In this document: positions 5,844 to 64,000 of the stretch, in pieces
Numbering within the stretch: the first letter of the stretch is position 1
Layout: every line of letters starts with the position of its first letter
From: Eledone cirrhosa
Lineage: Eukaryota
Direction: 5' to 3'
Length of the DNA: 64,000 nt
Assembly (NCBI GenBank): GCA_964016885.1
Contig: OZ024742.1
Coordinates: 180,420,001 to 180,484,000, forward strand
Made by a program: the position numbers and the translations under genes
Notes under the pieces: model-generated
Seen by the model: only the letters and a program-made list of their open reading frames with translations
Told to the model about the DNA's origin: nothing
The model's database searches: none

Positions 5844-5885
5844 ACCACTGACGATGTTGCAGATGTGCAACGAAAGATTTATGAT
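5844..5885 (+). ncRNA. Minimal type I hammerhead ribozyme in family A pLTR (also 14269-14310 minus, 19564-19605 plus, 61135-61176 plus)
   Basis: CTGACGA-T-GTTGCA gatg TGCAAC-GAAA-GATT-TA; AGAUUU is self-complementary with G·U pairs; short stem I. Confidence 0.82.
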
Positions 5886-6305
5886 AAACTATATATATGT
5901 GTTTGTGTCTATATTGTATCTGTATTTTTGACCGTCGGTCAGTCAATGGCAACATTGAGGACCGAGTATATTAGATTACCGATATAAAAGACACAGAAGC
6001 GAAAAGCGAAAACCAACCAAACAGTGAGTGTGTTCTGTTATTAATTCTGGCAATATTACACAAATATGACCCTCCCCAAGTATAACAATGTATATATATA
6101 TATATATATATGTATATATATATATATATATATATGTATATATATGTATATATATATACATATATATATGTATATATATGTATATATATATGTATATATA
6201 TAAATATATATATATGTATATATATGTATATATATATATATATATATATATATATATATATATATATATATATATATATATATATATATTAAAATAACAG
6301 ATTAA

Positions 6306-6356
6306 AGTGTAAGCAAAGAATCGCTGCTTTCACCCTTAACGGGATCTTCTGAAACT
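6306..6356 (-). ncRNA. Variant hammerhead motif (CAGAAGA core) in family B 3' region; counterpart 9438-9488 plus, deleted remnant ~45210-45250
   Basis: Consensus AGTTT-CAGAAGA-T-CCC gttaa GGG-T-GAAA-GCAG..TTGC-TT-AAACT; each copy has a private defect. Confidence 0.55.
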
Positions 6357-7219
6357 AACAAAGTCAATCTGTAAACGCAGAACTGGATATTTCAAAAAAC
6401 GTTGCAACCGGAGGCGGTCAGGAAGACGATACTTTGGTTCGTGGAAACGTTCGCTGGCAAAGAACGGGAAAAAACGAATAATACGTCATTAATAGGAGCG
6501 GTGAAATACAATTACGCGCAAAGACAGAACCACGTTTTTGGTATAAAAGAGGTCGTAGACTAATGTTCTCTTAGGTGGTGTATAGAGACGTTCTCTGGCA
6601 ATGAACGAAAAAACGAAGATAATACGTTATATGTGGAGCGTGGAGAACAATAGCAAGCAAAGACAAAACCACGTAAATGGTATAGCAGAAGTCGTAGACT
6701 AAAATTCTAACTAGGAGACCAAATCAATCTCCGCTACAGAGTTAAGAACAAAGTAAATAAATACAATACATAAGTAATAGAAATAAATTAATGCATACAC
6801 GCAAACAAATACGTACAAACACAAGCATACGCAAAACGTTACCATAGATATACAAAACCACGCACATATAAATGTGTGTGTGTGTGTATGCGTGTATACA
6901 AATAAAAAATTATATAAACGTATATAAATAAATAAATACGTATATAACAAGCGCACACACATACCTACATATAAATACATGAATGTTCGGAGACGTAAGT
7001 CAACTAAAACAAGAAGTACACGTATACACACACCCACCATACGTACGAACCTACATACTCACACAGACGCAAAACTCCCATATACACATAGCCAAACCCG
7101 ATGTACCAGAAAATATAAAATTATATGCCATAACAATCAAATAAACGTACGAGAAGTTATACGTACCTTCACAAAACATACGGGTAATATATACTTACCC
7201 ATGCAAATAAGTAAAGGAA

Positions 7220-59580: not shown

Positions 59581-61092
59581 AAATATATATATATATGTAT
59601 ATATATATATGTATGTATATATATATATATATGTATATATAGATGTATGTATATATAAATATATATGTATATATATATGTATGTATATATATATATATTA
59701 TATATGTATGTATATATATATATATATATATATATATATATATATATATATATATATATATGTATATATATATGTATATAAATATATGTATATATATGTA
59801 TATATATATAGGTATATATATATATATATATATGTATATATATATATATATGTATATATATAATATGTATATATATATATATATGTATATATATATAAAT
59901 ATGCATATATATATATGTATATATATATATGTATATATATATGTATATGTATATATATATATATTTATATATATGTATATATATGTATGTATATGTATAT
60001 ATATATATATATATATGTATATATGTATATATGTATAAACGGAAAAAATGAAACGAAATTTCATTTTCCACTCTTAGTACGGCTGTTACTTAAATATATA
60101 TATATATGTATGTATATATATATGTATGTATATATATATATATATATATATATATATATATATATATATATATATATATATATATATATATATATATGTA
60201 TATATATATATCTATATATATATGTATGTATATTTATATGTATATATATATATATGTATATATATATGTACATATATGTATATATATATATGTATGTATA
60301 TATATGTATATATATATATGTATATATATGTATATGTATGTATATATATATGTATATATATATATGTATATATGTATGTATATATATATATTTTTATACA
60401 TGCATATATATATATATATATATATATATATATATATATGTATATATACATGTATATATATATACATATATATGTATATATATACATATATATATATATA
60501 CATATATATATATATATATGTATATATATATATATATGTATATATATATATGTATATATATATATATGTATATATATATATGTATATATATATATAGATA
60601 TGTATATATATACATATATATGTATATATATACATATATATATATATATATATATATATATATATATATATATATATATATATATATATATAAATATATG
60701 TATAAATATATGTATATATATATATATGTACATATATATATATATATATATATATATATATATATATATGTATATGTATATATATATATATATATATATA
60801 TATATATATATATATATATATGTATATATATATGTATATATATGTATATATATATATATATGTATATATATATATTTATATATATGTGTATATACATATA
60901 TATATATGTGTATATACATATATATATATATATGTGTGTGTATATACATATATATATATATATGTGTGTATATATATATATATGTATATATGTAAATATA
61001 TATATATATATATAAATATATATATATATATATATATATATATATATATATATATATATATATATATATATATATATAAATATATATATATA

Positions 61093-61395
61093 AAAATGGC
61101 GTAGCCATACGATTCAACAGAAGGAAACAATAGAACCACTGACGATGTTGCAGATGTGCAACGAAAGATTTATGATAAACTATATATATATGTGTTTGTG
61201 TTTATATTGTATCTGTATTATTTTTGACCGTCGGTCAGTCAATGGCAACATTGAGGACCGAGTATATTATATTATATTAGATTACCGATATAAAAGACAC
61301 AGAAGCGAAAAGCGAAAACCAACCAAACAGTGAGTGTGTTCTGTTATTAATTCTGGCAATATTACACAAATATGACACTCCCCAAGTATAACAAT
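61093..61395 (+). mobile_element. Solo 3' pLTR fragment of family A with HHR
   Basis: Matches 5803-6089. Confidence 0.9.
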
Positions 61396-61580
61396 ATATA
61401 TATATATATATATATATATATGTATTTATATGTATATATATATATATGTATTTATATGTATATATATATATATATATGTGTGTATTTATATACATATATA
61501 TATATATGTGTGTATATACATATATATATAATATATGTATATATATATATATATATATATATATATATATATATATATAT

Positions 61581-64000
61581 ATTGTTATACTTTGGGAGGG
61601 TCATGTTGCCAATAAGAAACACACGCACCAGTTGCTTTCACTTCAATTTATTATATATTTATAAATTTATAAATTTACAAATCTACAAACCTATAAATTT
61701 CTGGTTGGTTGGTTGGTTCCACAACCAGATAGTTGTTTATATATAGTCATAGTCCTTTCGTCACACACTCTGTGACCTCTTCAGTGACTGGGGATTCCTT
61801 ACTTTGTTTCTGTGTCTTTCCTTTCTTCTGTCCTACGCCATTTTGTTTCTGTGTTTGTGTTGTGTGCTCAGTTTGCGCATACGCCACATCCGGGTGTCTG
61901 TGTGTGTTTGTGTTCATAGTATAGCTAAATCCGAACTTAGAAATATTATAGAACAGTATAGCAAGAAGCATAATAGAATAGAGGCCCAGCAACTGGGAGA
62001 AAAATCTGCAAATGGCTTGCGTAAGCTCATGCAGCGCTCACGTAATGGAGAGATAGCATGCTTTCCAACAGACAAGTCTGGCAGAATGTCGGTTGACAGC
62101 CTGCCAAACTACATCCAGGCAATGCAACCCCACATCACTAACACAAGAGAGGTAACACCACAGGAGCATGAGGATAGAGAAAAAACCCTCAATGCCCATA
62201 TGGTGATGTGGACGAATATAATGCAGCCCAACAAAAGGACTGCCAACAAATTCCAGGCCTGGAACAATGACGTGCCGGCGTTGTATGGGCTTCGAAAAGA
62301 CCATAAAACGGGCTGTGACCCTGTCGCGGGACCACCAACACGGCCAGTCTGTGGAGCTAACATTGCTAGTAACTACAGACTGTCCTACTTCCTCTCCCAG
62401 ATCATACGCCCCATCATTGAGATGTCCCCAGATGTATGTGACAGCACGGAGGACCTCCTCAGCAGAATCGGCGTGAGTAACCGATCTGGGGACCTAACAA
62501 ACTGCATAATAGGCAGTATGGATGTTGTGTCCCTGTATCCATCTATTGACGTGGATTTTGCTGTGGAGAAATGCGTAGAAATGATCAGCGAGAGCAAGGT
62601 TGAGTTCCGTGGCATTGATACCAGTGAGCTGGGACTTCTACTTAAGCTTACCCATAGTAATAGTTACCTAGACACTTATGACCTTAGCAACCTGTGCCCT
62701 ACAAGACCAGCAAGAGGCAGACCACCTACCATTACCTCAATGGCCAAGAAAACCCACACATATAGATGGAACGGGTGGACCAGAGCCATACGGACACCCG
62801 AAAACCACGATGAACTGAAGAAAATGATTGCACATGCGGTAGGGGCCAGCATAAAATTAACCCTTAAGGAACATATGTTCAAATTTAATGGTAAAACATA
62901 TGCCCAAGAGGAAGGAGCAGCCATTGGTGTTAGCATTGCAGGCGGCATAGCTAACTTATTCATGGTATGGTGGGACAGTAGACTTAAACAAAAGCTTAAA
63001 GAACAATTAGAAGACAGCTTAACCCTGATAATGTACTCCCGCTACGTAGATGATATAAACATCGTAGTTAAGACACCCCCACTAAAGAACAGTCAGGAAC
63101 TAGAGAAAAACACAATGGAAAGCATCCAGCAAATAGCAAACTCCATCCACCAGAGCATTAGAGTTACTATAGACTACCCAAGTAGACACCCCAACCATCG
63201 ATTACCTGTACTAGACACAGAGCTCTGGTTAGATACCATTAACAACCACAAACAAATCCTCCATTCCCATTACGCCAAACCCATGACTTCCAAACATCTG
63301 ATCCACCGAAACTCGGCCATTTCTGACCATACCAAAATCAACATACTGATTGCGGATGTGGTACGGGCGATGAGAAATGTGTCCCGCATGTGCAACCCCG
63401 AAGAACTAGAGAGACACATACAACACTTCATCCACCGTATGCAGTTCTCTGGCTACAATCAGAGAGATAGAAACAGAGTTTATAGAGGAGCCAGAACCAA
63501 ATGGGAAAAAATGGTAAATAATGACATAAATGGGACCTGCCCCTTGTATAGGAGCAAATTTTGGAATAGAATAGAAAGAACTAGGAACAAGGCCAATAGA
63601 ATAAACTCATGGTATGATAGCAATAAATACCAGAGTGTAATGTTCATCAATACAACCCCTAGAGGCGAACTAGCCTACAAATTTAGAAGGGCCCTAAATA
63701 AACATAAACTCAATAATAAGATAGTAGAATGACCAGGTACCTCCGTAAAAACACTTATTAGCAAGACATACCCGTTCCAAATACCCTCATGTATAGATAA
63801 GAAATGTATAACCTGTAAAATAAGCCCCCATATTAACTGTAAAACTAGAGATGTAGTGTATAGCATAAGATGTACTGAAGGACAATGTAGAAACAAAAAT
63901 ATAGTGTACATAGGTGAGACAGCTCGTAGTATAGGGGAACGAATAAATGAACACTGGTGAGACCTTCAAGATAATAAAGAATCATCTGTGCTCTACCAAC
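61581..64000 (+). mobile_element. PLE subfamily A': inverted pLTR (61581-~61915) joined to 5'-truncated RT/GIY-YIG ORF (~61916 to window end; TGA stops at 63730 and 63958)
   Basis: PTDKSG, LYGLRKDHK, SMDVVSLYPSI, YSRYVDD, VVYSIRC..YIGETARS; the first ~38 aa of ORF 61804-63732 are antisense pLTR. Confidence 0.93.

Follow-up and report, generated by a model that had tools for sequence, protein, structure and literature searches.

The stretch analyzed here, 64,000 nucleotides of Eledone cirrhosa contig OZ024742.1 (positions 180,420,001 to 180,484,000; the window), comes from a 3.0-Gb, AT-rich animal genome and contains both coding Penelope-like elements (PLEs) and short tandem units that lack an open reading frame (ORF), with hammerhead ribozyme motifs in both. 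Pure (TA)n makes up ~10% of the window, as against 5% of random stretches. We are fairly confident that the window is a pile-up in (TA)n of coding PLEs together with ORF-less units likely mobilized by PLE enzymes. The features are collected in the Table.

Hammerheads were sought with a type-I descriptor at strong and relaxed settings, and the relaxed list was inspected by eye. The strong descriptor returned 21 type-I hammerheads in the window and none in three local dinucleotide shuffles, a palindrome-requiring descriptor returned 19 and none in 30 shuffles, and the relaxed descriptor returned 32 candidates compared with 1–8 per shuffle (10 shuffles). Two candidates were removed, 7730 (weak) and 6351 (core CAGAAGA), and 38374, whose stem II is damaged, was added, leaving 31 motifs in 13 families and bearing out the estimate of ~32 motifs in ~13 families made by a first-pass annotation of this DNA. 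The motifs have the core CUGANGA / GAAA / UH around three stems and are open at stem I; the core varies to CCGAAGA at 36429 and 43443 and to TTGAAAA at 58570. A stricter first descriptor missed most of them because stem II often begins with a mismatch or an extra base. Compensatory changes are present in the stems, both sides being altered in 10 of 14 pairs of alignment A1 and in 9 of 21 of alignment A3, in rows picked by the hammerhead descriptor and thus biased toward structure. The covariation score was matched by none of 500 shuffles in either alignment and collapses when the register is slid. In an Rfam scan of the window, the 150 best rows out of 236 were TA-repeat noise and included no hammerhead. 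The hammerhead observation is thus confirmed, and the motifs belong to known kinds, namely PLE minimal hammerheads and non-LTR (long terminal repeat) retrozymes. All eight stem III sequences listed by the first-pass annotation as family types are present, but family A has AGAUUU as its less common form, and ACUAUGGU is only a local variant of ACCAUGGU.

Table. Features of the window; positions count from its first letter.
Feature	Position	Strand	Details
Coding PLE A, Neptune-like	1352..6089	+	CX4CXXC linker, GIY-YIG type endonuclease; short inverted arm, 45-nt tail
PLE A hammerhead core	5848		stem III AGATTT
Hydra-type PLE C	6290..9598	+	fold-back, 94-nt tail on right arm
Degenerate hammerhead candidate of PLE C, uncounted	6351	-	
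Coding PLE B, fold-back stub	9833..10411	+	60-nt tail; hammerhead core 10160 (AGAACT)
~487-bp unit, likely ORF-less	11906..12497	-	1.2 copies; core 12031, hairpin stem III ACCG-TTT-CGGT, no palindrome
13350-family hammerhead	13344..13394	+	very abundant, dispersed; 4-bp stem III, 8-nt loop
Coding Hydra PLE, fold-back stub of 3' untranslated region	13706..14045		hammerheads 13813 (-) and 13953 (+), ATGCGCAT
Coding PLE A', fold-back	14163..19867		hammerheads 14306 (-) and 19568 (+); tail ~58 nt, right arm
20114-family hammerhead	20002..20119	-	88-nt stem II, ACACGTGT
Coding PLE D, Neptune-like	21536..26434	+	Pfam GIY-YIG match; fold-back, 53-nt tail
310-bp retrozyme array, whole	27062..30899		12 hammerheads (ACGCGT); (TA)n on both sides
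310-bp array, inverted arm	27062-28042		3.2 units; 34-nt tail, left arm
310-bp array, forward arm	28043-30899		9.2 units
5'-truncated Hydra PLE	33928..36757	+	hammerhead core CCGAAGA at 36429 (ACAAATGT)
Hammerhead stub of coding Hydra PLE family	37579..37644	+	ATATGTAT; same family as ORF 10637-11608
~430-bp retrozyme fold-back	37690..38630		hammerheads 37945 (-) and 38374 (+), ACTAGT
659-bp unit	40552..41841	-	1.96 copies; hammerheads 41016, 41675 (ACTATGGT; family norm ACCATGGT)
Hammerhead, 3' end of coding Hydra PLE family	43439..43485	+	core CCGAAGA, ACAATTGT
Hammerhead, U3-A8 core TTGAAAA	58566..58667	+	ACGGTCGT; 602 nt behind Hydra ORF ending at 57971
PLE A, 3' stub	61060..61397	+	hammerhead 61139
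Coding PLE B	61582..64000		inverted arm, hammerhead 61784 (-, AGGACT), then reverse transcriptase ORF on +
Family A, four motifs	5848, 14306, 19568, 61139		
Family B, two motifs	10160, 61784		
310-bp unit family, twelve motifs			
Other two-motif families	13813/13953; 37945/38374; 41016/41675		
Single-motif families	12031, 13350, 20114, 36429, 37587, 43443, 58570		

The 31 motifs are divided between coding PLEs (12), and four ORF-less tandem units (17), with two motifs (13350 and 20114) assigned to neither. Seven of the 13 families are ends of coding PLEs. The coding elements are of the EN+ type, in which the ORF joins a reverse transcriptase (RT) to a C-terminal GIY-YIG endonuclease (EN): Pfam recognized RVT_1 in B (weakly, E 7e-5) and GIY-YIG in D (E 1.7e-7), six of nine ORFs were without a match, and the remaining ORFs were recognized through motifs and cross-similarity. 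Clades were assigned by motifs and mutual ORF similarity against the description in PMC8557442, not by phylogeny. The ORFs at 7.2, 10.6, 33.9 and 56–58 kb are Hydra-type by these motifs (CxCX5C linker, RW, DKT) and have the (TA)n target of that clade; A and D carry a CX4CXXC linker and are Neptune-like by this motif, with no tree behind the label. An inverted 5'-truncated arm and a one-sided tail are found in all five of A, A', B, C and D. Ten of 17 family A copies and 4 of 14 family B copies have the hammerhead ~280–360 nt past the end of the ORF, and at two loci three copies of the ATGCGCAT family have theirs behind a Hydra ORF. Long fold-backs contain Hydra ORF sequence in 6/6 cases each for the 37587 and 43443 families, and the 36429 and 58570 hammerheads are located behind Hydra ORFs of the window itself. 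Twelve copies each of three supposed orphan families had no ORF within 1.5 kb upstream, and longer fold-backs gave Hydra ORFs for two of them. Three of the four families once described as orphans are in fact 3' stubs or ends of coding Hydra PLEs. PLE D, a full fold-back with a tail, gave no hammerhead in any descriptor scan.

Four families consist of tandem units without an ORF, of 310, ~430 and 659 bp and, on less evidence, ~487 bp, the last being in tandem at two loci only. The 310-, ~430- and 659-bp units carry one hammerhead each, as expected of retrozymes, and have 4,268 (for one core variant), 7,083 and 56 matches in the genome, respectively; here and below, genome-wide copy numbers are exact pattern matches. 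The units are dispersed and multicopy, with a GC content below 50% (0.35–0.36 in two of them), and their longest stop-free stretches span 59–69 amino acids. No PLE ORF was found upstream of any sampled copy (0/51, 0/77 and 0/13 for the 310-, ~430- and 659-bp units). A public-run word search placed the 310-bp unit in runs X1, X2, X3 and X6, with four organism labels and 0.90–1.00 of sampled words; contigs in three of these runs are identical to the window's unit, and no RNA run was listed as carrying it. A stem III variant common to the window's two 659-bp units is absent from the 54 other matches, although the two differ by ~4% elsewhere. Stubs of the ~430-bp unit that end at its long site (described below) and lack a hammerhead occur at 33541-33596, 37237-37340 and 60035-60090.

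The most informative feature of these units is the shape of their insertions. Among eleven 310-bp arrays picked by their core, the window's included, ten begin with an inverted arm and continue with a forward one. Both arms end in TA repeats, one of them 128–139 nt and the other 163–170 nt behind the cleavage site. Another 40 arrays were picked by the long end, and in 36 of these an inverted partner ends at the short site; two of the other four have no partner, one lies at a gap and one runs beyond the fetched stretch. In total, 46 of 51 arrays are two-armed, with ~35 nt between the short and long ends, and none of the 40 picked by the long end has two long ends. Ends of the 310-bp unit abut (TA)n genome-wide at 1,164 short and 723 long sites (plus strand only), and public-run contigs contain loose TA ends at the same two sites. 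Arm length varies between 0.2 and 25 units, the longer arm can be the inverted or the forward one, and the arrays are 97–100% identical to the window's unit. Junctions between the arms are spread evenly over the unit (Kolmogorov–Smirnov P 0.49 and 0.39), most with an overlap of 0–7 nt, and do not cluster at the cleavage site, only 2 of 71 falling within 10 nt of it. Each fold-back was therefore made at insertion. An excess of junctions near whole-unit lengths, seen in the first 10 arrays, was gone in 36 independent ones.

Two other ORF-less units follow the same plan, with ends at ~220 and ~276 in the ~430-bp unit (a tail of ~55 nt) and at ~289 and ~397 in the 659-bp unit (~105 nt), and the one-sided tail is also found at the ends of the three orphan families examined. 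An inverted arm with a one-sided tail is part of PLE anatomy as depicted in Fig. 2 of PMC8557442 and in passages of PMC3846280. Because the arms and the one-sided tail match those of the window's coding PLEs, we infer that PLE enzymes insert the ORF-less units, the main evidence being insertion shape in (TA)n. The helper/parasite system proposed by the first-pass annotation is supported to this extent by inference from insertion shape, but it applies to only four of the 13 families, seven being coding PLE ends.

The arrays also bear on the template. A survey of 386 complete 310-bp units in 48 arrays yielded 24 haplotypes, with differences mostly fixed within an array: in the 39 arrays of at least three units, 74 variants are present in all units, 40 in a single unit and 11 in part of the units. 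Fixation of this kind requires that the sequence often pass through one unit and then be copied many times over. Among 32 arrays with complete units on both strands, none has a variant fixed in just one multi-unit arm; two random 310-bp arrays share a haplotype ~13% of the time (hand calculation). The data do not support separate RNAs, transcribed at different loci, as templates for the two arms, since the arms share a haplotype. A circular monomer template would fit these data, as it would directly give near-identical units across both arms.

On the main reading, a read-through transcript of an array is predicted to fold two neighboring units into a double hammerhead, and the palindrome would be simply what allows stem III to form; the free fold of two neighboring 310-bp units is such a double hammerhead, at -82.6 kcal/mol compared with -63.5 for two monomers. 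Cleavage would free a monomer that could be ligated into a circle. As circles, the monomers fold more stably than shuffles (z -4.1, -6.9 and -2.0). The PLE endonuclease would then nick (TA)n, and each end of the target would prime reverse transcription on the same template, at two fixed AU-rich sites 35–105 nt apart depending on the family. The RT would travel round the circle, the number of turns varying, and the two complementary DNAs (cDNAs) would join at a random point. A bolder version, to which we give somewhat less than even odds, has both cut ends of a (TA)n target prime at two fixed sites on one circular RNA that has no sequence in common with any PLE end, each rolling up to 25 times before the cDNAs join.

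Several observations weigh against the main scheme, or against PLE mobilization more broadly. A homogeneous linear multimer as template would equally yield identical units in one generation, variants that appear ‘private’ are so only among 48 of >1,000 arrays, and mixed 310-bp arrays exist (L187, L194 and L199). Cleavage, circle and transcript are predictions from DNA sequence and folding, and in parts of bioRxiv 10.64898/2026.07.22.740005 only one of nine Xenopus retrozyme dimers is reported to be cleaved in vitro. The window's own ~430-bp fold-back lacks a clean long end, and target-site duplications are illegible in (TA)n. A 41-unit ~430-bp array with period-4 blocks resembles an ordinary ageing satellite. 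Finally, a comparison of 3' ends suggested by the first-pass annotation came out negative: apart from low complexity, the four ORF-less units have nothing in common with the eight PLE-type 3' ends compared, which come from the window and a single locus and cover a minority of the genome's PLE families.

Among the ~430-bp arrays at L203, L204 and L205-L206, two show period-2 blocks and one, the array of 41 units, shows period-4 blocks. The two period-2 arrays alternate two units (lag-2 identity 0.99–1.00), with a stem change in every alternate hammerhead, a pattern that fits either a dimer circle or DNA duplication. The idea that a dead ribozyme sets a dimer-size circle is unsupported, as those arrays were chosen because the pattern skipped alternate units.

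Two alternatives to parts of this account are unlikely in our judgment, and a third far more so. The first concerns the palindromic stem III, which the first-pass annotation suggested could act as a dimerization code; on this alternative it is a selected, family-specific signal confining trans cleavage to like RNAs. Stem III is indeed fully self-pairing in 19 of 21 families compared with 5.3 expected (with a descriptor that does not require a palindrome), and ACGCGT is conserved in 473 of 474 motifs. Since stems I and III both form between the two units of a double hammerhead, the choice of partner depends on both. For the 300 pairs among 25 multi-locus families, stem III is predicted to separate 290, the heterodimer being weaker than the weaker homodimer, including 32 of the 34 in which stem I is cross-compatible; only two pairs pass both stems, so that the families are predicted to be insulated from each other. 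However, stem I alone separates 266 of the 300, and any set of differing palindromes is orthogonal without selection. A code also predicts private palindromes, but sharing goes beyond chance: 17 families with perfect 8-mers use nine sequences compared with 14–15 expected at random (P <= 0.0005, related families not being independent), with ACAATTGT in five families, ATATATAT in three, and ACTAGT, ACGT and ACCGGT in at least two. Family A has two stem IIIs (AGAACT in ~59 and AGATTT in ~37 of 100 copies listed, by hand count), and family B (10,095 matches) also uses AGAACT and has no fully self-complementary stem III among 100 listed. A perfect palindrome is missing from 6 of the 25 multi-locus families, stem III is a hairpin in the ~487-bp and 13350 families, and tandem 310-bp units are predicted to dimerize in cis. 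That unlike palindromes should pair poorly thus stands as a prediction, but a selected code is unsupported. The orthogonality looks incidental, a side effect of divergence by drift in stems I and III rather than an address code under selection, and the palindromes look to be conserved by descent while the other stems drift. No heterodimer tests of double hammerheads were found among the 15 of 4,687 matches listed by a literature search, with Lunse et al. 2017 outside it.

According to the second alternative, about as improbable, the ORF-less units are fragments of PLE terminal repeats that grew into arrays at the DNA level with no RNA circle. It draws on the three ‘orphans’ that turned out to be coding Hydra PLE ends, on the diverged 41-unit array with its period-4 blocks, and on parts of bioRxiv 10.64898/2026.07.22.740005 that derive retrozymes from pseudo-LTRs (pLTRs) and invoke local amplification. 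Nevertheless, sampled copies have no ORF upstream, very young insertions have arms of up to 25 near-identical units, and the fixed outer ends and random centers in both multi-unit arms fit arrival as a finished array better. An origin of the ORF-less units from old pLTRs is possible. The third alternative, in which chimeras formed during assembly or amplification account for the fold-backs and AT-rich DNA matches the motifs by chance, would suit a hard-to-assemble region rich in (TA)n and inverted repeats, but it is highly improbable given 783 matches compared with five in shuffled copies of 1.45 Mb, stem covariation, a separate fixed end and separate flank for each of the two arms, and the same ends in independent public contigs.

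The window is not special; its motif density and family mix are ordinary for this genome. Sixty evenly spaced sites on six large contigs, 600 kb in all, contain 77 hammerheads (0–3 in shuffles), and the 200 kb beside the window contain 13 matches. Random 60-kb stretches average 5.9 families at a strict threshold, compared with nine in the window (P = 0.16), and 12 of the window's 31 motifs are from one tandem array, that of the 310-bp unit. A (TA)5 run lies within 400 nt downstream of 52 of 75 sampled motifs, as against 23% of random positions. Pooling of all loci (1.45 Mb) gives 783 matches and 55 families, compared with five in shuffled copies, in a pool enriched for families deliberately searched for.

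Of the two motifs outside coding PLEs and ORF-less units, 13350 belongs to a family with 32,075 pattern matches genome-wide, many of them tiny fold-backs 46–80 bp apart. Twelve copies of it had no ORF within 1.5 kb upstream, in a check that included no longer fold-backs of this family. Some relatives, at L231 and L235-L237, keep the half of the hammerhead that holds stem III, have lost the CUGAUGA box and stem I, and lie inside a larger repeat. Further fold-backs at 48327-48674 and 59226-59655 have no hammerhead match. In another, at 39941-40145, the hammerhead is present as its 3' half alone and has a long stem III, and a relative at L151:2936 is complete, with a U3-A8 core. The ORFs of PLEs A (2885-3460) and A' (16647-17444) include a long asparagine-rich segment resembling the N-rich inserts described in passages of PMC3846280. 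Several separate TA arrays within 26435-40565 together have 32 plus-strand copies and a single minus-strand copy of a TATACAGATATA variant; it reaches two copies in 0 of 60 random 10-kb loci and 1 of 20 neighboring ones. The TA arrays are probably descendants of a single oriented array that nested insertions broke up. Addition of TACAGA variants by the neighboring element was rejected, the strand being constant whatever the direction of the element.

The systems found here resemble several known ones. Passages of PMC4209133 describe minimal palindromic hammerheads in PLE repeats, with many families per genome and activity as dimers, and a circle model for tandem insertions. The motifs here share their type-I topology, short palindromic stem III, U3-A8 core variant, additional base ahead of stem II (seen in families A and B), multiplicity of families with mostly dispersed truncated copies, and (as expected here) dimer-dependent cleavage. 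They differ in that several families have palindromes of 8–10 nt or a stem II of 50–100 nt, some Hydra elements have a CCGANGA core, and most cut sites end in UA. Similar to the Hydra/Neptune EN+ PLEs, as described in parts of PMC8557442 (Craig et al. 2021) and PMC3846280 (Arkhipova et al. 2013), the coding elements have a C-terminal GIY-YIG type EN, (TA)n targets, the same linkers and motifs (CxCX5C linker, RW and DKT in Hydra-type ORFs, CX4CXXC linker in A and D), and an inverted 5'-truncated arm with a tail at one end only. The tails are 34 to ~105 nt here, compared with the 30–40 bp given there. Parts of PMC8557442 state that the mechanism behind tandem-plus-inverted PLE insertions with a one-sided tail is unsolved.

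Retrozymes are presented as circular RNAs with PLEs as likely helpers in parts of PMC7229834 (Cervera and de la Pena 2020) and as non-autonomous PLE derivatives in parts of bioRxiv 10.64898/2026.07.22.740005 (Li, Clavereau and Pollet 2026), which finds pLTR homology for part of the retrozyme families; sections of a 2020 review (PMC7761336) describe animal repeats with no motif pointing to a helper. In the two retrozyme papers the case for PLE help is built on co-occurrence and on homology to pLTRs, whereas the units here have no match to the PLE ends tested yet have the PLE insertion shape. The 659-bp unit exceeds the 150–450 bp of PMC7229834 but falls within the 51–972 bp of the bioRxiv study. 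A word search of the main texts of both papers found no inverted arms or tails in retrozyme insertions, and a search of open-access main texts turned up no report of such insertions having inverted arms and a one-sided tail. The helper/parasite idea is thus already published, and what is new is structural support from the insertion footprint. The added value lies in the clean footprint of the 310-bp family and not in crowding or palindromes: a palindrome code adds little, and a dense mix of families is ordinary for such genomes. This young family (>1,000 insertions with two fixed ends, random centers and one haplotype each) links the helper question to that of PLE integration, and its 310-nt unit offers a test substrate for PLE integration and retrozyme mobilization. 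If the twin-primed rolling-circle reading is true, PLE integration would be recorded directly in the genome by the >1,000 young arrays, and its mechanism could be rebuilt in vitro with the 310-nt circle as a minimal substrate. Further non-coding counterparts are the non-autonomous Chlamys PLEs such as MRC1, which in passages of PMC8557442 are likewise non-coding, bear pLTRs, are multicopy and head-to-tail, and are mobilized by PLEs. Chlamys non-autonomous PLEs generally share 3' sequence with an autonomous partner and are mostly without hammerheads according to the same passages, whereas the units described here have no shared end that we found and carry a hammerhead in every unit.

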